From Amphiscolops sp. MND2022 (lineage: Eukaryota): a DNA stretch of 64,000 nucleotides. Positions 5,170 through 51,659 of the stretch are shown here, in pieces. The position numbers and the translations under genes were made by a program. Location of the stretch: assembly GCA_964187785.1 (NCBI GenBank), contig OZ076409.1, positions 6,760,001-6,824,000 of the forward strand, given 5' to 3'. Positions within the stretch are counted from its first letter, which is position 1; each line of letters begins with the position of its first letter. The notes below the pieces were generated by a model. That model saw only the letters and a list, made by a program, of their open reading frames with translations, searched no databases and was not told where the DNA came from.

Positions 5170-8100
5170 TTAGTTTTTCGCCGCTTTTTTCTTCTCTTTC
5201 ACTTCACAGATGTACACTGGAAATCCATATCGATCGGGTGCCCGTCTAGTTCTTCTGATCTTTTCTGGCATATCGTCTGGGTCGTCTTGTTCTATTCTCT
5301 CTTCTTGTTCCAATTCAGCAAACACCTGTGTGTTTTCTTGTTTCTGCTTGTCGATATCTCCCAGGGCATATTGTCTCGCTCTTTTTGGGGCTCTTTGTTT
5401 TCTCGCTGACTTTGGCACTCGTGCCACCTCTCTTTTGGATAAGACTGTCTCGTCTGTTTTTCCTTCTGGGATGAATTTCACCGTGTGCCTTGTTTCTGCG
5501 GTGACCTTTCCCCTTCTCTTTTTGAAAAGTCCCGTCAACTTCCCTTTTCTCTGCCGTTCTCTGACGAATATCGTGCTATCGTCATCTCTTGGGAAGTCTT
5601 GGAGTCTGTCCAGGTCCACATTTTTGTCGTAATCTAAATCATTCAATTCTTTATAAAGTTTTACGATTAAAGATGTTATCGTGTTTGGTTTTCGGCCCGT
5701 ATGCCTCTCGAACGGTGACTTTCCATCTTTTCCTTTGATAGTTCTTAGTGCGCTTACCAGTTGGTAGAACAATTTGTTCTGCCTTTCCGCTAAAACTTCA
5801 GGGTTAGTTCTTAGTCTTTCGTTCACTGTTCTTATGAGTCTCTCGACCTTTCCGTTTCCTCTGTGGTCATATGTTGGGCAAACTATGTGGCGGATCCCGA
5901 ATTCTTCTCTAAAGTTTTTAAATTCGCTTCCCATGAAGACCGCGGCTTGGTCTGTTCGCACAATTTGTGGAATTCCGTTGTCACTTATATATTTTCGCAA
6001 GAATTTTTCGATTCCTTTCATGTCAGTACTTTTTACAAATTTTAGAGTAGGGTATGCTGAAAAATGATCTATTGCGACTAATATATATTTTCTATTTTCG
6101 GGAGCTCCTGAAAAGGGACCCATAAAATCTAGCGCGATTTCTTCATTAACCTGTTTTGGTTTTCTAATATTTCCGAATTCCCGTTGACTTTTTAGGGGTT
6201 TTACATTCTTACCTGCTTTTTGGCAGTTTGCGCATGTCCTTGCTACCGCAACAATTTGTCGATTAATTTGCGGCCACCATACCTCATCTACCGACCCCAG
6301 CATCGCATCTCTGCCATTATGACCGCTGTGGATGCTGTTTAATACTGCTTGTCTTAAGTCGGAAGGGATAACTAATCGGTTTTCGAAATGAACAAGCTCT
6401 CTGTCCACTCTCAAGTCCTTAAATACATGGCGATACAATTTGTTTTCTTTACTGAGGAGGTTTATATCACGCCTTAATACAGCGTCACGAACGTTTTGTA
6501 ATTTCAAGTCAGCTTGATAATTTGACATTAATAGGCCATCAGTAATTTCTTTGAAGGTTTTCACCTTTACAAATTTAACTTCAGGTTCGGGGTTAACTTG
6601 CGATGCAGATGAACTTTCCTCTATTGAGGATACAATTGATTGAAGTGGGGAAGTTTTTAATTTCTCTTCTCTCACTTGTACAATTTGTTCGCTTTTGGGA
6701 GTTTTTAACGCTTTAATTAAATTGCGTGTATTATTTCTTTCACGGCTAATTTGCAGTCGACTCCTTTCCAATTGTTTATTCTCGCACTCAAGACGGTCAG
6801 CGCTTTCTACTTTCTCTTCAGCGTTGTTTCTTTGCTGAACGCTGATTGGCTGATTGCACAATTTGTTTAGCCTCTGATTCGTAGATAGCTGCCTGCTGCC
6901 ATTCTTATCTAATTCTTGTACTGAATTAACTACGAACCAACTTTCCCATAGTTTTTTAGCGCTTTTTGACCATTCGTTTTCATTATAATCGCTTGGATGC
7001 CTTGACAAATAGTCGGCTAATCCCATGGTTCGTCCTGGTTGATGTACTACTTCCATATCAAAGGGCAAAAGCCTGTCTATCCACCTCGTAAGCCTACTTG
7101 AATAAGTTTTATTACCGTGATTGCTTTTTAGTGCGGTTTCTAAGGCTTTGTGGTCCGAAATTACTTCGAATTGGACTCCGTACACGTAGTTCCGGAAATG
7201 TTCTACAGCCCAGACTATGGCAAGTAATTCTAATTCATTCGTAGAATATCTTGTTTCGTAATCTGACAAATATCGTGATGCGCATGATAATTCCCACTCA
7301 TTTTTATCGTTTTTCTGCATTAATATTGCCCCCAGGCCTTCGTGACTCGCGTCGCAAATTATGCGCAATTTGTTTGATCTATTGAAGTGCGATAGTTTAA
7401 TAATTTGTTATACACTTTTTTGTACTCGATTGAAAGCTAAATCGTGTTTTTCTTTCCACTGCCAAGTTTCCTCCCTTTTTAGTAAGTCTCTAAACGGTTC
7501 GGTAATTTGGGCCAATCCGGGAATGAATTTTGTTAATTGGTTTACGGCTCCCAAATAGGATCTTAGTTCTTTTAAGTTTTTGGGTTTAAGTTTCTCCGTT
7601 ATCCCTTGCACTTTTTCATTCAATGGTTTTATTCCCTTTTCTGAAATGTTGAATCCGAGCCAATCTATTTCATTTTTCGCAATTTTACATTTTTCTTCCT
7701 TGAGTTGTAGTTTTCTACTATCTAATTTTCTAAAAACCTCCCTAACCTTTTCTTCGTGTTCTTCCTTTGTTACTATTAAAATATCATCTATAAAAACAAA
7801 CACATTAGAGATATTTATTAAAATGTCCTCCATTATTCGCTGAAATTCTGTGGGCATTACTGTGAGCCCGTAAAATCCTGTTTTAAAACGGTATATGCCG
7901 CTAGCTTTTCCCCCGATAATTGCAAAGTTACAGTGTTTCGCCAATTCGGGGTTTAGTTTTACTTGTCCGAATGCGTATTTAAGGTCGACTGATGTAAACC
8001 ATACTTTTTCTCCGTCTTCCGACATGATCGTTTCTGCCAAGGTATTCAATAAGTCGTCCAAATTCGGCATCTGGTATTTATCTTTCTTTATATTTTCGTT

Positions 8101-9702
8101 CATCGCTCTGGCATCTAACGCTATTTTAACTGTTTTGTCTCGTTTTACTGTAATGACCGTGGGTTGTATGAAAACGTCATCTTTTATTTCACTGACTTTT
8201 TCAATATGTCCATTTTTCATCAGTTTTTGCAGTTCCTTTTCAACCGAATTTTGGAGTTGTAGAGGTATGCGGCGTCCCTTTTGTTGTTTTGGTACAAAAT
8301 TTTCTTTAAATTGTGCATTTATTTCGTGTCCTTCGACTCGTCCGTGCCTATTGAACAATTCTCCAAATTCGGTAAACAATTTGTTTGGTGGTTCATCTAC
8401 GCAATTAATTTCACACTTACCACCTCCTGTCTTTAGCTTGACGCCCAAACCCCTCAACCAGTCTCGGCCTATCACTGTTCTCGCGCCGTTTTCTGCTATT
8501 AGGGCCCTGACCTTGTCCAGCTTTTTACATCCTGCTTCGACTTGTCCAATAATAGCCCCGATGAACTCAATTTTGTTTCGGCTGTAGTCAACGTATTTTT
8601 CGTCTTCTCCCAGGGTTTGCAATTTGTAGTTTTTTCCAAACATTTTGTCCGCGTGTGCTTTTGTGAAAATTGTGATCGGGAACCCGGTGTCAATGAGTGC
8701 GTGGAAGGGTTTTCTGTTAAACTTTCCTTTCAATACAAAGGGTTTGTTTGTGTGTCCCTTTTCCTCGTCGATGTGAAGTATTTCCACTTCTTCTCCTGAC
8801 TCGTCCTCCGAGCTGCTCCATGATGATTTTGACTGTACTACATTCACCCTTTTTTGTTGGGGGGCCTTGTTTTGTTTCACGTCTGTTTGTTTCATTCGGC
8901 ACATTCGCGCATTGTGACCCATTCTCCCGCAGTTTCTGCACTGTACGTTTTTCGCCTTGCAAATCTTCTGATGTCCGGCGACGAATGGTCTTTCTCCGCA
9001 TTTGTAACATTCGTTGTGTTTTTCTATCGCGAACACCGGTTCCTCTTTAATGTTTGTTGATTTCACACAAATTGTTTTCTTTTGGTAGGCACCTTGTTCG
9101 AATGCTACCGCAAATTTTAATGCGTCCTCTGGGTTGTCCTTTGGTTCAGTGAAAAGTCTCTCTTGCACTGTTGTATTCTTCATATTCGATACGAATATAT
9201 CGTAAACTAGTCCAGTGGTCTGTGAACCAAAGTCACAATTTGCAGCTAGTCCGTTTAAGGCGTGCCAAAACTGTTCTAAACTCTCGTTGTCCTTTTGTTT
9301 TCTATTTAAAAATTTGTGGCGGTCCATCAACCGATTTCGCTTTTTCTGAAATGCCTCGTTGCATTCTTTCAGGAGATCTTTCAGTGTAGTTGTTTTTATG
9401 TCCATATTGGGTTTCCGATCCAATAATGCCTTTCTGGCAGCTTCTCCGAGCGCTATATACAGGAAACTCACTGCTTTTTTCTCTGCAATGGACTCTTCTG
9501 CACCTCCCATCAGTTCTTTTTTTCTAGGGTTTGTGCTTGCATCCTCTCTTGTGAGTTCTTCTAACGATATGGAGGATTTCGCCATGAGGGTTGCTTCAAA
9601 CAGTTCTAGCCATCGACTCCATTCGTGTTGTTTTTCTGTGGCTGGATCTTGCCAGAATACGGGTATGCCCGATATCGGCTGGTTTTCCGCTCGCAACGCC
9701 AT
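5170..9702 (-). pseudogene. gag-pol polyprotein (two Zn knuckles, aspartic protease, RT, RNase H, integrase) split by one in-frame TAA at 7408-7410
   Basis: Motifs CYKC..H..C and CRNCGRMGHNARMC (gag), LIDTG (protease), FIDD (RT), CDAS/ELELLAIVWAVEHF/ADYLSR (RNase H), and HHCC plus DFMGP..TDQ..VER (integrase). ORFs 7408-9741 and 5170-7368 are in the same frame. Confidence 0.93.
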
Positions 9703-9869
9703 GTAATAGCTAACGGCTTGATGAAAGAAGTGTGAATGCAAATCAACTGTATTTCAGCAATCTCAGACCGTAATGGTAGTCTTTTCTATTTTGTCAGAAC
9801 ACTGTGTTTCTGTCTGGCAGGTACTTTGTCAACTTTGACTAACTGCTCTTTTATCGCAACACTACTACA
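9702..9869 (-). repeat. 5' LTR (168 bp)
   Basis: Direct repeat of 4859-5026; PBS immediately adjacent. Confidence 0.95.
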
Positions 9870-28399: not shown

Positions 28400-29435
28400 A
28401 AATTCATTTTATCAGGAGGCTCCAGATAGAGCTGTACAGGCAATGCTGCCCTTAGCCCGCCACATTCAGGTCACGAATAAGTGCTCTCCATTGGCTTCTG
28501 TTCTGGGCTGTTTCTTTACACAGATCAAACCACTGTGCCTCCCACTTCTTCAGCGTCATCTTTGGAGATTTTACAACTGTCTTCAGCTCTTCACGGACAA
28601 TTTTTCGCCAGGATTTGCGTACGCCGCCGGGGGGTCTTCTCCAGTTTTCACCTTTTTCAAACTCAACTACTGCATTAGGAATTTCCGAGGACTTCATACG
28701 GAATACATGTCCTAGCCATTTCAAGCGTCTCTTTTGTATCATAGGGGCAAGAGGGTCACATTTTGCAGTAGGAGTGATCAATGATTAGGGCAGGTCATGT
28801 CCCTTATGGAGTATACGTCGCAGACAGCGGTTTTCGAAGGACTGTGAGCTGCTTAGGTCGGATTCCTTAACTGGCCAGCTCTCGCATCCGTACAGAAGAA
28901 CACTTCTCACGCACGCGTTGTAGATTTTCACTTTTACTGGCTGTGGGATACTCCTCTGGTTCCAAACTCTTTTCAAATTGTTAAAACTACCTGCAGCATT
29001 CCCTATCCTGGCCTTGATATCTGATGTTACATTTCCATCAAGTTGGATCTTGCTTCCAAGATAGGTGAAGTCCTCGACTCGCTCTAGTTCTTCACCATAG
29101 ACGTGGAACTTCTGGTTGATGTCGTGGGTGCAGAATTTGGTCTTGCCGACATTTAAATGGAGGCCTACTAAAGCAGCGTAGCTGGTTACTTGATCGAGTA
29201 GCCTTCGGGCATCTGTGCCGTTGTCGTCAAGCAAACAGATGTCGTCGGCGAAGTCAAGGTCAGCAATTGTCATGTCATCTAACGCGACGCCTACATTTTC
29301 GTTTTCGAGAGCTTGTTCCATGATCCAATCGATTACGATGTTAAACAGAAAGGGGGATAGAATGGAGCCTTGTCACACTCCACTGAGAATGCTGAATTGG
29401 CGTGACATGGTGTTATGTACTCGGATTTGGCTGTA
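28400..29435 (-). mobile_element. 5'-truncated RTE-like non-LTR retrotransposon (RT pseudogene fragment), antisense in BRD7/9 intron 3
   Basis: Motifs GV*QGSILSP, LDFADDICLL, FTYLGS, LLYGCESW, RRLKWLGHVFRM; stops/frameshifts present. Confidence 0.9.
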
Positions 29436-37979: not shown

Positions 37980-38062
37980 CAACTTACTACCATACTCTAA
38001 CTACAATTTTATTCTGACTTTTTTCAGGTGCATGATCAACAGAGTCGCAATCTTTTGCTTCA

Positions 38063-38348
38063 ATGTCTTATGAAAGCAGTAAAAAGTGGCGCTATGCTTG
38101 CTCCGATGGTTTCAAGGAATTCAAATCAATTATCCCCAACAACATTCGAGTTAAGTCAAAATTACATTGTGTGCAATTGGTCCAATCGTACGTGAACTAT
38201 CTCGAAACTTTGTGTATGGTTCTTGATTATTCAGACAGTCGAAGTTCATTATCATTGCTCAAACGGGACTTCTTCAAGTCGATGGAATTGGAATGTTTCC
38301 ATAGATACAAGCGAAAGCGTGCCAAAAATGCCGGCCCATTAAGTAGAG
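38063..38348 (+). CDS. Divergent bHLH-like protein, coding exon 1
   Basis: KKWRYACSDGFKEFKSIIP...KSKLHCVQLVQSYVNYLE fits helix1-loop-helix2 spacing (F..L...IP / K...L.....Y...L); 5' UTR acceptor at 38027. Confidence 0.6.
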
Positions 38349-38354
38349 GTTGTC

Positions 38355-38732
38355 GGCTCTTTTCTGTTTCGGTCCCCGAACCCTTCACACTAGCCTGATC
38401 AAAAGTAAAACCTTTCATAACGGGAAGTTAACGTCTATTAGAACAGTTTTTTGCTTGAACAAAGCATTTTTCACGCATTTTGACAATAATCATGTTCGTA
38501 TTAAGTGTTTATTGATGACTCAAAACAGGAAGCTGTTCATTTCTTCATCAAAAATGCGTGACTATATAGCGAAAAAGTGTGAACAAAGTTTGTATCTCAA
38601 TCCTAAACTGTCACTCCGAGAATAAATTTTAAATTGAAGCTTTCTGGTTTGTATTCCAGTCTTTTTGTCAGCAGATTTTCATTAATTTTCCAAAAAAAAT
38701 GGTGGTGGGGGAAAAGAAAACAGAAAAGAGCC
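38355..38732. mobile_element. GG-terminal MITE inside the bHLH CDS (candidate Introner), perfect 8-bp TSD AGGTTGTC
   Basis: TIR GGCTCTTTTCTGTTT / AAACAGAAAAGAGCC; TSD at 38347-38354 and 38733-38740. Confidence 0.92.
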
Positions 38733-38734
38733 AG

Positions 38735-38982
38735 GTTGTCTAAATGTGCCTGGAAATGGTGAAATCGATCGAAATGAGAGTGAACAAGGAAATCGGATCG
38801 CTGTCAATGCAGGCCTCCATTTTCGACAGACGAACAGTTTCACAGACACATTTCATGGTGAAGAGAAGGCCGGAATGTGCGATTCTTGGACTTTGCGCAA
38901 TCAGGAATTTCAACCAATTGATGATATGCTCTGGGTAGACTTGGAGAACCATCCTGATATATTCGCTGCCTCAGTTCAATGA
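38735..38982 (+). CDS. Divergent bHLH-like protein, exon 2 (177 aa total)
   Basis: Removing the MITE plus one TSD joins SRG-CLNVPGNGE in frame with ORF 38746-38982. Confidence 0.6.
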
Positions 38983-42532: not shown

Positions 42533-42650
42533 GATCGTAGAGTCATCCATCAGTGCTATAGTTCACCAGGGAGGGCTGTCATAAATGCGACAATCCCTCG
42601 GGTGCTTCCCATGAAACCATATAATTTCTGACGATTTTCTAGGTAATCGG

Positions 42651-43313
42651 ATGTCATTTCTGGAGAAGCGAATTGTGAAAGATAAACGAGGATGTCGAAT
42701 TACTGCCGCTGTTCCCGAGGACAAAAGTCCCTTAATGCTGGACGATCCGTTCTGGGTTCCTGACAGCCGAAGTCAGCATTGTAATCATTGTCATGCCAAA
42801 TTCAACACCATTCGAAGACGTCACCACTGTCGCAGATGTGGGCTATGCTTCTGCGACTCTTGCTCAAAGTCGTTTCCTCTCATGCGCATGGGTTTTGTCG
42901 AAGCAGTCTTACAATGCCCCAAGTGTACAAATTTGAGCCGGGCTGAAATGGACTTTTTCAAATTCGCAGTTCCTGCATTAGAAATGGGGTCAGAAGTTTA
43001 TGTGGAGAATTACGATGGCATATTTTTTGCAAGATTGACACCTAACCATCAGAATATCGTTCTAACAGACCCTCAGAATTCCCTGCACACGGAAAAGATT
43101 CCGTTGACGTCAATTTTATCTGTGTGTGAGTCTTGCGCTGGGGATCAGAGGACGCTTGTGGACTTACCAGTGATAGAACTGGAATTCACAGGAAACGTAA
43201 CAGTTTCCAACCGAACAATGAAACTAATCGCGGTTGCTGGGCATCAAAGATTCGTTTCACAGACATGGCTTCGCAACCTGAAAAAGGCAATACTGTTGAT
43301 TCAGCCGACTTAA
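42651..43313 (+). CDS. ZFYVE21: Zinc finger FYVE domain-containing protein 21 (220 aa, intronless CDS)
   Basis: FYVE motifs WVPD and RRHHCRRCG; RMGFVEAVLQC and the C-terminal domain match recalled ZFYVE21 architecture. Confidence 0.88.
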   Translation: MSFLEKRIVKDKRGCRITAAVPEDKSPLMLDDPFWVPDSRSQHCNHCHAKFNTIRRRHHCRRCGLCFCDSCSKSFPLMRMGFVEAVLQCPKCTNLSRAEMDFFKFAVPALEMGSEVYVENYDGIFFARLTPNHQNIVLTDPQNSLHTEKIPLTSILSVCESCAGDQRTLVDLPVIELEFTGNVTVSNRTMKLIAVAGHQRFVSQTWLRNLKKAILLIQPT

Positions 43314-49062: not shown

Positions 49063-50038
49063 GTCCTTAGAATCAGCTGTGTAATTCATTTCATTATTGG
49101 TCAAAATGACTTTCTCGCTTAAGCATCAATAATTATCAGTAATCTCGTCAATCGAATATAAACCTTCAAAAACAAATATTTTTGACATCTGAACTCCGCA
49201 ATAGCATAAAAAACCTACCTCCTTTCAACCAATAACAGGAAAAAAGGAATGATATTGGATAGCAAAAAACTCCAATATTTTCCTTAGTAATACAAGGCGT
49301 GAACAAAGAATTTTTGAGTTATTGTTTTACTGAACAGAGAGCACAAAGCCTTTGGTGAAACCAACACAAACAAGCCTTGAGCTGCTTTGATTTATGAAAA
49401 CCTTGATTCACATACAGAAATATCCCTTGTCTTACCGGCATGTACAATGACTAATACCATGGAACACAGTCTACTAGGTATAAAAAAACACTTATACATT
49501 ATGTAAAACCAAAAAAATCATGGTAACAGCCGCTTCAAAATAATGGCTCCATTGACGAACTCTTTTTTGGATCCAGCAAACTCTGGTTTCTTTGATCCGA
49601 GTTTCTTTATTGCCACATTTTCGCTTCATTTGAAGTTTTGAACTGAAAAAAAACAAAGAAAAAGACTGAGATTTGATTCGAACGAAATGTTTTACGAACT
49701 ATATGTTCGTCACTTCAGTCACAAAACAATTAAACAAAAGACACTTGATAATCTTTTCACTCCTTCTCATGCTGAGTCTAGTTTTCGTTTCAAGAGCTCT
49801 GTAGTTTGAAGTCATTTTTCGTGATCGACTTGAAAGCCAAAACTGGCACGCTGCAAACGCTTTCACCTACCTTCGATGTGAAAAATGGTCACAGTAGATA
49901 AGATTAAGTTGATTGTTGCTTAGCCACTGTGTTTTAATCTCGATATTGGTTTCAATCGTACAATACGTCAAAGCATTCGCTTATTTTGACTTATTCACCA
50001 ACATATGATTTTATTTTGTTTTCTTTTAAAACTGAAAT

Positions 50039-51239
50039 ATGGATGAAATTAGAGAAAAACTGGACGATTTGGAAGACAGGTATTACCGGTTCACCCACCA
50101 ACAGCGTTGCTTCGCCGACGCCCTAACTGCTGGTAGGCGGGGCTTCATAATTCCAGCCCCTATAAAGACGGTAACAGAGGTTCTTGCTCTTTTGGAAGGC
50201 GAAGACCTCGAACGAAGCAAAGATGTTCGAATCGTGGAGGCCTTTGCCTCTATTTTTTCCGACATCGATGCCTTACGCAAGCAGTTCAAACATATCCTCA
50301 TTGGATGCCTGGAGACGAATGAGAAAATCAAGACATCTCAAGCTGCTAAAAAATTGGTCCAGTGTTTGAAAAAATGGCGGACCATGATGGACCCGGACTT
50401 TGATTTCTCGGAACTGAGAGCCAAGTATCCACACAGCGTGGTTGAGAGACTGAGTTCCGTGGAAGCCAGAGAACTTTACGCTGGCGTTGTATCGTTTCTT
50501 CCTATAGCTTTAGATAACGTCAGAATTGCCTTCATTTATTTACAACGTGTTTTCAAACAAACTACTGCCCAAATCCCGTTCGGTTTTTCTGACCAATGGT
50601 CTTCACGAAGTAGCGCTACTTCTTTATCAAGAGCTCTTGCCTCGACACGACCCAACTCAGCGTTTATAAACACAATAAGGGACGAAAACAATAATGAGGA
50701 GTGTCAAATTGAAGGCAAGAGTAGACCCCAAACGGCGCATTCTTCCTTAAAACTTGACATCCCTAAAACTGCCTCAAACGCAACCAGAAGCAACTCCCTT
50801 GCCACAAATGACTTAGCCAGACTTGACACCCCAGCTGTTCGGAGTCCCTCAGCTGCCAGTGCGCTTTCCAGGCGCTCGTCGGGTCACCCAAAATCCAGGG
50901 TTTCATCGTCACACAACAACCGACCCAAAACAAGCAGCTCCGCCGATTGGATCGATATTGAGAATGTCGATGAAGGATTGACTCACGGCGATGTTGAAGT
51001 GAATCCCCGTTATTCAAAAAGTTCTCGAAATTCAGCGACGCGACGTTCGGCCCCCTTGTCGAGAACACCTTTGAGCACCATCAGACAGAGATTGAAGGCG
51101 AATCCAAGGGAAGTTTCAGCTATCCAGGAGAAGCTGAGACAAATGAGATCCCAATCAGCAACTTCCACCCCTGGAAGAATCCAGGCGTTGGACGGGTCGA
51201 GCCAGAACGGGAAGTCGTCAGAAAATGGTTACAAACAAG
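50039..51239 (+). CDS. SPACA9: Sperm acrosome-associated protein 9-like, exon 1
   Basis: MDEIREKL..RFTHQQRCF and LRAKYPHSVVERLSSVEARELYAGVVSFLP match SPACA9 (LRAKYPHDVVNHLSCDEARNHYGGVVSLIP, from recall); long S/R-rich tail follows. Confidence 0.88.
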
Positions 51240-51659
51240 GTTGTTAATTATTCAGTTTTCACGAAAAATGTTTTAAACAGGTTTTTAACGAAATATACTG
51301 TTTTTTTTTTGTATTTTATTGTTTTTTCCTCTTGGGAAAAATACCGTGGAAAACAATGTGTTAAGTAAAACTGTTTTTTCATTTATTGTCAAATATTTCA
51401 TTGTACAAAAATTTAACAAACGAATATAAAGCATGGAAGTCATTCACTCCATTGAATTTTTCCCAGATATCATCATTCACACGAGGCGTTTTGATCTGTG
51501 ATCAAAAAGTACCAAACAAATTGGAGTCAGAAACTAGACCATAACCAACTGAAAAGAAGTGTCTGAACAAAAACAGGAAAAAACGGTGTTCTTTTAAAAA
51601 TGGTGTTCTTCATGTTTTTTCTTGTGTTTTATTCATGAAAAAACACCTTACCAACCTTG
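51236..51659. mobile_element. CAAGGTTG-TIR MITE forming the SPACA9 intron (candidate Introner)
   Basis: TIR CAAGGTTG/CAACCTTG; TSD GTTACAAA (51228-51235) / ATTACAAA (51660-51667). Confidence 0.92.

Follow-up and report, generated by a model that had tools for sequence, protein, structure and literature searches.

A window of 64,000 nucleotides from the genome of Amphiscolops sp. MND2022 (GenBank assembly GCA_964187785.1, contig OZ076409.1, positions 6,760,001 to 6,824,000) contains a small gene whose reading frame is interrupted by a miniature inverted-repeat transposable element (MITE). We consider it likely, with a probability of about 0.6, that this MITE inserted into a single coding exon at the site AGGTTGTC and is now spliced out as a new spliceosomal intron. 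According to this model, the MITE would have landed at AGGTTGTC, and the duplication of the AGGT contained therein would have put splice sites on both sides of the element; a cut by the spliceosome at the GT and the AG of the duplicated sequence would then remove the element together with one copy of the duplication and leave no scar. For the window gene, splicing would thus decide between the full product of 177 aa and a truncation of 111 aa. Judging from the pattern of insertion sites across the genome, the MITE is likely to be a working, or at least a partly working, intron. The origin of new spliceosomal introns in animals is an old question that is thinly documented, and the genome analyzed here offers five independent candidates from one generic MITE family, one of them in a housekeeping gene, which share an unusual acceptor architecture and a statistical footprint of selection. 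If the interpretation holds, the birth of an intron would have been caught early, and it could be examined whether pairing between terminal inverted repeats (TIRs) is able to take the place of a polypyrimidine tract.

Insertion site in the window and state of the interrupted gene

The element is flanked by two identical copies of an 8-bp target-site duplication (TSD) and ends in perfect TIRs, of which the left one pairs with its reverse complement on the right at 15 of 15 positions (Table 1). As the initial annotation of this stretch had proposed, both splice dinucleotides originate from the TSD: a GT follows the AG of the left copy, while the AG of the right copy precedes a GT. Excision between these borders joins the ATG at 38063 to the stop at 38980-82 and restores an uninterrupted open reading frame (ORF) of 177 aa. 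Not only these features, but also the identification of the element as a MITE, based on its TIRs, its TSD and its membership in a high-copy family, were confirmed, as was the caveat of the same annotation that the acceptor AG is preceded by the purine-rich TIR and by no pyrimidine tract. The MITE has a G+C content of 35% compared to 37.6% for the window, and its longest internal ORF covers 36 aa. If the element is retained, the frame from the ATG at 38063 stops within it. Upstream, the stop-to-stop frame opens just past a TGA at 38033-35.

Table 1. Features of the interrupted gene and of the inserted element (positions in the window).
Feature	Position	Strand	Remarks
Likely 5' untranslated start of the coding exon	38029..38062	+	preceded by an acceptor-like ttttttcag whose last base is 38028
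Coding part 1, from the ATG through the G that precedes the candidate donor	38063..38348	+	95 codons + 1 nt; conserved N-terminal domain resembling helix-loop-helix (HLH) domains
Left TSD AGGTTGTC	38347..38354	+	candidate 5' splice site GAG/GTTGTC, GT at 38349-50
Candidate MITE-derived intron	38349..38734	+	386 nt, phase 1; splicing suggested by the genome-wide pattern
MITE	38355..38732	.	378 bp, non-coding
Left TIR GGCTCTTTTCTGTTT	38355..38369	+	15/15 match with the right TIR
TGA stop if the element is retained	38396..38398	+	111 aa = 95 native + 16 from TSD and MITE
Pyrimidine-rich segment containing three AGs (last bases 38659, 38671 and 38674)	38647..38674	+	competing acceptor-like sites
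Branch-point-like TTAAT, followed by ttttcc	38682..38686	+	~49 nt 5' of the candidate acceptor; from a YTNAY scan, putative role
Alternative AG outside the perfect TIR stem	38715..38716	+	in frame, would add 18 nt (6 aa)
Right TIR AAACAGAAAAGAGCC	38718..38732	+	three AGs inside; predicted to form an RNA stem with the left TIR
Right TSD AGGTTGTC	38733..38740	+	candidate 3' splice site ...GAGCCAG/G, AG at 38733-34
Coding part 2	38735..38982	+	82 codons including the split codon, + stop 38980-82; C-terminal motif DDMLWVDLEN

The interrupted gene is single-copy, as a search with the N-terminal protein matched this locus alone in the assembly; neither an empty-site haplotig nor a paralogue was found in the genome by this search. 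A homologue from another assembly record (P0001, 173 aa) shows 71% identity to residues 1-86, and the C-terminal motif DDMLWVDLEN matches VDDLFWIELEN of P0001, which is one continuous protein. Since P0001 matches both halves colinearly, the two halves formed one uninterrupted protein before the insertion. Judged by this comparison, the ancestral gene evidently had no intron at this position.

The MITE family and a census of its insertion sites

The exact 15-mer of the TIR occurs 2046 times in this 1.07-Gb animal genome compared to 7 times for a reversed control. A DNA search with the element gave 4342 first-look candidates; for the 40 candidates that were scored, the identity over positions 29-378 amounts to 87-90%. 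Typical copies of the family, whose size is about 1000 copies, are 400-425 bp long, carry TIRs of ~45 nt and are flanked by perfect 8-bp TSDs of unrelated sequence; at ~100 sites, matching 8-bp flanks of unrelated sequence were observed. Altogether, the TIRs, the varied 8-bp TSDs, the short length, the missing coding capacity and the high copy number identify the element as a member of a MITE family. Since many of the copies are nearly identical to each other, this family was recently active. The window copy is atypical for the family, as ~31-43 bp of the left subterminal repeat found in other copies are missing, and no copy with the same left-end deletion was detected genome-wide (the left 40-mer is unique with up to 3 mismatches allowed). 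Furthermore, 23 of 377 aligned positions show states private to the window copy, while the other copies comprise 0-4% of private states; according to a manual count, ~10 of the 23 positions fall outside the rearranged left end and a G-run.

Two further observations concern the distribution of the family. The pairs L004/L010 (C7, 16.71 and 16.86 Mb), L006/L007 (C5, 13.29 and 13.54 Mb; inverted) and L037/L038 (C11, 55.83 Mb) each consist of identical MITE insertions that share their TSD and flanks, which points to recent segmental duplications. A degenerate copy of the same MITE is located inside an ordinary intron of a CCT gene (L044, ~715-775; C13 near 9,335,515-9,335,575).

The occurrence of AGGT in the TSDs was compared to the expectation from base composition (37.6% G+C). 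At TSD positions 1-4, AGGT was found at 7 of the 2046 ends, with ~7 expected. The remaining four usable TSD offsets contributed 15 more AGGT ends, resulting in a total of 22 compared to ~35 expected, while words of the same composition were found at 26 ends (TGGA) and 33 ends (GATG). AGGT enters a TSD by chance upon insertion and is not a target preferred by the family. At this chance frequency, ~1-2% of the insertions receive an AGGT.

For a census of insertion sites, 100 distinct sites were collected, for which a flank of at least 500 nt was required, while up to 3 mismatches were accepted in the partner TIR and up to 1 in the TSD. The controls comprised the top matches of the DNA search, paired TIRs located within the first 77 Mb of C1, and copies whose TSD contains TGGA or GATG. 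A site was considered to split a frame if, once the copy and one TSD were removed, an open frame extended over at least 60 aa on each side. Five of the 22 AGGT ends were left out (L035, L055, L056, L060 and L061), for which no partner TIR was found within 1.5 kb, and so were L037/L038 and L057, which contain the word in one TSD copy only. AGGT or its complement was present in both TSD copies at 14 sites, 5 of which split a frame, whereas among all 86 other sites 1 split frame was found (L084, 152 aa), corresponding to p=1.5e-4 in a one-sided Fisher test. Without the window locus, the proportions are 4/13 and 1/86 (p=8.8e-4), and the composition-matched TGGA/GATG controls alone showed no split frame at all (0/35). 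The single control case, L084, gave no Pfam match at an expectation value (E) of up to 1 and does not look protein-like by eye. In each of the five cases, it is the AGGT strand that carries the split frame, while the MITE's own orientation is mixed (2 one way, 3 the other). Interruptions of coding sequence are concentrated among the copies with a sense-strand AGGT in the TSD. This observation is most simply explained by a selection filter, in which insertions into exons persist mainly where the TSD supplies GT...AG, presumably because only those would be spliced out without a scar.

The split ORFs at the other four loci resemble real genes. At L052 (C4 near 4,768,800; TSD TTCAGGTT), a 930-bp composite element interrupts a frame of at least 283 aa, and the half past the junction matches ATP-grasp_2 of succinyl-CoA synthetase beta (E 3e-62, profile positions 17-199), with the match starting at the junction and a joined reading of ...EYQSKSLMREF/RLNVQPF.... 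Further Ligase_CoA exons were found 10 and 13.5 kb downstream on the same strand and none in the first 4 kb, which identifies it as a normal gene with several exons rather than as a retrocopy. A paralogue is located on C3. At L049 (C3 near 1,840,340; TSD CAGGTATT), the 279-aa frame contains a PAN_1 domain scoring 25.5 bits against a cut-off of 21.4. Its first half showed a sub-threshold match to the start of Lectin_C (E 0.009) and weak matches to mannose receptors (E ~0.08), and domain and homologue searches gave nothing for the second half that would indicate a C-type lectin continuing across the junction. The frames at L039 (C1444 near 509,100; TSD AGGTTCTC; 227 aa) and L051 (C4 near 1,663,150; TSD AAGGTGTC / AAGGTCTC; 258 aa) comprise no recognized domain. 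A protein from a public collection that is 100% identical to L051 (P0004, 189 aa) begins with residues from the right end of the MITE and the TSD, from which it follows that the L051 insertion is also present in a second assembly record.

The last ~30 aa of the L051 frame run into a dispersed repeat, as the tail (..FSRRFRRKSRLLQWLVFFSSVQR..; L051 ~2390-2475) recurs in many unrelated predicted proteins (P0005-P0011). Motifs like KGGPF and RVPPF also recur in the ORF translations of L063, and there seems to be an abundant unclassified repeat in the vicinity of genes. The window segment 39280-39600 may resemble this repeat.

The TIR ends of the sister copies that lie outside the search pattern matched at 14, 15, 14 and 15 of 15 positions, while the interiors of these copies are 69-78% identical to the young subfamily. 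For the L049 copy, the identity to any relative does not exceed 79%, although its TSD and TIRs are perfect. The well-kept ends could possibly result from selection on the stem that they form, or from old copies that were re-mobilized and kept their TIRs, and are therefore not decisive.

Splice sites, age of the insertion and competing explanations

As a reference for splice sites, 15 introns from four multi-exon CCT genes were used (loci L043-L047, on C11, C13, C1383 and C8). Their junctions were picked by eye following the GT/GC-AG rule and all were checked for phase; four of the joined pieces keep one stop, because the far ends of the search matches run into neighbouring introns. The real donors showed an A at position -2 in 14 of 15 cases, a G at -1 in all 15, an A or a T at +3 in 6 cases each, and a G at +5 in 11 of 15. 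The GC-AG type is represented by two introns, both with GCTAGT. In this small sample, the 5' splice sites of the genome look unusually loose, with only -2A, -1G and +5G being well kept. Since the real donors include GTTATC, GTTGGC and GTTGGT, the candidate GAG/GTTGTC of the window is similar to sequences in use.

The same purine-rich TIR terminates each of the five candidate introns. In the predicted folds of 5 out of 5 candidates, the right TIR with its three AGs pairs with the 5' end of the intron, and the end-to-end duplex energies range from -35 to -52 kcal/mol. For the candidate intron of the window, the TIR stem is predicted in both the minimum free energy fold and the centroid fold. Upstream of the right TIR, the five candidates contain a stretch free of AG that reaches back to about -50 to -83, together with T-rich sequence and YTNAY motifs at about -43 to -58. 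The 3' splice site is chosen as the first accessible AG downstream of the branch point. It could be assumed that the subterminal part of the MITE provides a branch point and a short T-rich tract ~45-60 nt upstream of the acceptor, while pairing of the TIRs in the pre-mRNA would juxtapose the splice sites and hide the three AGs of the right TIR. With these AGs masked by the stem, the AG of the TSD would become the first accessible one. In its general form, the proposal would be that an active, ordinary MITE family repeatedly makes introns on landing in exonic AGGT, with TIR pairing in place of the polypyrimidine tract. We regard this generalization as possible, though doubtful; if true, any transposon with TIRs would have a structure-assisted way of becoming an intron.

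Private substitutions of the window copy at 38657, 38669 and 38671 change TTCAAG and TTATAAG of the family to TTCCAG and TCAGCAG, which are stronger acceptor-like sites. These sites (38657-38671) sit upstream of the branch-point-like motif.

Regarding the age of the insertion, the TSD and both TIRs of the window copy (46 nt) are unchanged and both ORF halves are intact, while the interior comprises 3-6% of private states. Assuming an indel-to-substitution ratio of 0.1, the chance of an ORF of 177 codons remaining intact under neutrality was calculated to be 0.48 at a divergence (d) of 0.01, 0.11 at d=0.03 and 0.01 at d=0.06. The combination of an intact ORF with private states leans towards constraint, but cannot settle the matter. 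The initial annotation had also considered a recent disruptive insertion; with 23 of the 377 aligned positions being private to the window copy, the attribute recent is not demonstrable.

A number of observations weigh against the removal of the MITE as an intron. The candidate donor lacks the G at +5 present in 11/15 real donors, and the pyrimidine fraction of the candidate acceptor at -23..-4 was determined to be 0.10, compared to 0.45-0.80 (mean 0.61) in the 15 real introns, the acceptors of which are, unlike the donors, not loose. The internal AGs at 38659, 38671 and 38674 look better with pyrimidine fractions of 0.65-0.75, and joining them to the TSD donor leads to an in-frame TAA. Taken alone, the quality of the splice sites makes scarless splicing unlikely. 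The proposed masking is affected as well, since the left subterminal deletion of the window copy leaves a stem of 15-16 bp and the AG at 38715-16 unmasked, the use of which would add 18 nt in frame. The census comprises small numbers, and its threshold of at least 60 aa was set after the data had been seen; when the minimum is relaxed to 30 aa per side with a total of at least 170 aa, L106 joins as one further control. No recognized domain is present in two of the five split ORFs (L039, L051), and the survival of AGGT insertions would require only partial splicing. Finally, the divergence of the interior was considered unsafe for dating the insertion and discarded, since an element that moves by cut-and-paste can bring older mutations along to its new site, as illustrated by the L049 copy with its diverged interior and perfect TSD and TIRs.

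Several of these points fit a plain disruptive insertion. In that case, splicing would be negligible and the 111-aa product would keep the N-terminal domain without the C-terminal motif; the gene would be a young pseudogene or a truncated allele, and the AG/GT in the TSD would be coincidental. Not only is the acceptor far outside the range of the real introns (n=15) and the donor devoid of the +5 G, but AGGT also occurs in the TSDs of the family at chance frequency. The perfect TSD and TIRs fit a young event, for which an intact ORF would be expected with a chance of 0.48 under neutrality at d=0.01, and a stop in what appears to be the last exon would mean that the truncated message need not be degraded. 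However, a disruptive insertion leaves unexplained why 4/13 of the other AGGT-TSD copies split ORFs compared to 1/86 controls, always on the AGGT strand, and why the multi-exon succinyl-CoA synthetase beta gene is interrupted but otherwise intact. In addition, if the 23 private states postdate the insertion, the intact ORF becomes unlikely (0.11 at d=0.03, 0.01 at d=0.06). A chance AGGT with a simple disruptive insertion had been our first reading, with odds of ~60%, and was demoted after the census; we now consider it rather unlikely.

Splicing with a scar appears improbable. Here, the TSD donor or another GT would be joined to a different AG, resulting in an altered protein or in mostly non-productive isoforms: with the AG at 38715-16, the message would stay in frame and gain 18 nt (6 aa), while those at 38659, 38671 and 38674 would lead to the premature TAA. 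The normal pyrimidine content of the internal AGs (0.65-0.75) and the position of the AG at 38715-16 in frame and outside the perfect TIR stem are consistent with such an outcome, and published introners can likewise add codons, as described for 12 bp in Aureococcus in the sections of PMC9860276 dealing with them. In contrast, the census showed an enrichment specifically for a TSD containing AGGT, a feature that would be relevant only if the TSD sites are used, and the internal AGs are located upstream of the branch-point-like motifs. Nothing was found in favour of an accidental repeat structure or ORF, or of an assembly error, and this explanation is highly improbable given the 2046 exact TIR ends compared to 7 for the reversed control, the TSDs at about 100 sites, the homologue that is colinear across the junction, the single copy of the gene in the assembly, and the presence of the sister insertion L051 in a second assembly record (P0004).

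With regard to ordinary introns, their content seems to be very uneven between genes: several CCT genes are intron-poor, the one at C1:33715344 being a single 547-aa frame, while paralogues comprise 7-8 exons. In the window, uninterrupted frames were found for a FYVE/ZFYVE21-like protein and a SPACA9-like protein at 42615-43313 (+) and 50036-51247 (+). The window further contains a Ty3/gypsy-type retroelement at 5170-9753 (-) with two long ORFs comprising aspartyl protease, reverse transcriptase, RNase H and integrase, and a further reverse-transcriptase fragment at 28785-29372 (-). Taken together, the Pfam matches from the window and from related loci (SPACA9, FYVE/ZFYVE21, PAN and Ty3/gypsy-type pol) indicate an animal genome.

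Host protein, element and candidate intron compared to known systems

The initial annotation had designated the host as a basic helix-loop-helix (bHLH) gene. Of this designation, a similarity to HLH domains below the thresholds can be retained, while the basic region is missing and no significant score was obtained. The two halves of the window protein gave no match to the HLH family of Pfam at E<=1, and PF00010 reached 13.1 bits on P0001 compared to a cut-off of 20.7 (E 0.084, profile positions 12-53 of 53). A basic region before helix 1 is not present, since the protein begins with MSYESSKKWR and the profile match of P0001 starts at HLH position 12. In a comparison of a four-sequence profile with the PDB, the bHLH domain of TAL1 (E=1) was outranked by an unrelated adhesin (E=0.25); the weak alignment to TAL1 covers the pattern WR..AF.E.k..vP...SK...L..Y..L. 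AlphaFold2 predicted helices at 3-23, 33-57 and 62-89 with a mean pLDDT (predicted local distance difference test) of 62.8, and a Foldseek search of this low-confidence model against the PDB gave no match. The ten best named clusters of an Atlas feature search were all HLH, with values of 0.82-0.85, which serve as a lead only. Among 1.84 billion representatives, the relatives of the protein are P0001 and two shorter sequences (E 3e-10 and 2.6e-6), 3 in all.

A helix-loop-helix topology as in HLH proteins is predicted with low confidence for the window protein (helices 3-23 and 33-57), which, compared to class A bHLH proteins such as TAL1, starts where the basic region would end. The C-terminal DDMLWVDLEN could not be assigned by us to any of the HLH families. 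The protein may resemble the HLH proteins without a basic region, of the Id/Emc type. The host gene is small and lineage-restricted; the comparisons weakly suggest that it is HLH-like without a basic region, and do not establish it as a bHLH gene.

Among known transposons, the TSD of 8 bp is shared by the MITE family and the hAT elements. The target consensus of hAT elements is nTnnnnAn and their TIRs begin with YARNG. In the family described here, a T at position 2 was found in 9/24 and an A at position 7 in 8/24 TSDs, which is near base composition, and the TIR begins with GGCTC. As for an autonomous partner, three longer TIR-bounded stretches (2.4-4.9 kb) contained no ORF >143 aa; no wider search was made. 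Since the TSD length fits, while the TIR start and the target pattern do not and no ORF of the size of a transposase was found, membership in hAT was not established.

The proposed origin of the candidate intron in the window corresponds to the intron-gain model of "transposon insertion into AGGT" (Yenerall and Zhou 2012, Biol Direct 7:29, PMC3443670). As far as the model is set out in that paper, the logic is the same: the TSD puts AG/GT on each side, the element is removed with one TSD, and the coding sequence remains unchanged. It is presented there as a model with indirect evidence, and Table 1 of that paper lists 35 events in Oryza, Drosophila, Oikopleura and Zea. The model is thus in print, but concrete cases are few. 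Compared to it, the present data add five candidates, all of which belong to a single ordinary MITE family of one animal genome, and a statistical sign of selection.

Introns are also generated by introners, which are MITE-like elements (Gozashti et al. 2022, PNAS, PMC9860276; reviewed in PMC11282704). According to the portions of these publications concerned with their structure, they are, like the candidates described here, DNA elements with TIRs and TSDs that become introns and recruit splice sites from the TSD; for the introners of Florenciella, both splice sites come from the insertion site (PMC9860276, legend of Fig. 2E). Introner families are described in PMC9860276 as many near-identical introns that lie mostly in genes, with an enrichment in genes in 161/175 genomes, and among the 3,325 eukaryotic genomes surveyed there, two animal groups only are given as carriers. 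The family of the window, in contrast, is a generic MITE of ~1000 copies, in which 5/100 of the examined sites split an ORF and no preference for AGGT was observed. Without gene bias and AGGT preference, and with few intronic copies, it is not an introner family, although it is introner-like at single loci.

A further route of intron gain is the tandem duplication of an exon segment containing AGGT, as outlined in PMC3443670; a case from the potato RdRp has been reported (PMC4974935). In this route, the GT also comes from the first copy and the AG from the second, and the removal is scarless. Here, however, the duplication is the 8-bp TSD of a transposition, and the body of the intron is a transposon. 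In the section of the review PMC11282704 devoted to them, MITE-derived non-canonical introns of the tunicate Fritillaria borealis and nonconventional introns of euglenids with paired TIRs are described, which likewise have TIRs and TSDs at the intron borders. For the euglenid introns, the same source describes that pairing of the ends brings the splice sites together and that there is no polypyrimidine tract. In contrast to these introns, which according to this source occur in very large numbers and have non-canonical borders (AG-AC, AG-AT and others), the candidates described here have canonical GT-AG borders and show an enrichment that is specific to AGGT. Altogether, the mechanism is already known in principle from the model given in PMC3443670 and, in a specialized form, from the introners, whereas TIR pairing that substitutes for the pyrimidine tract would be a new variant.

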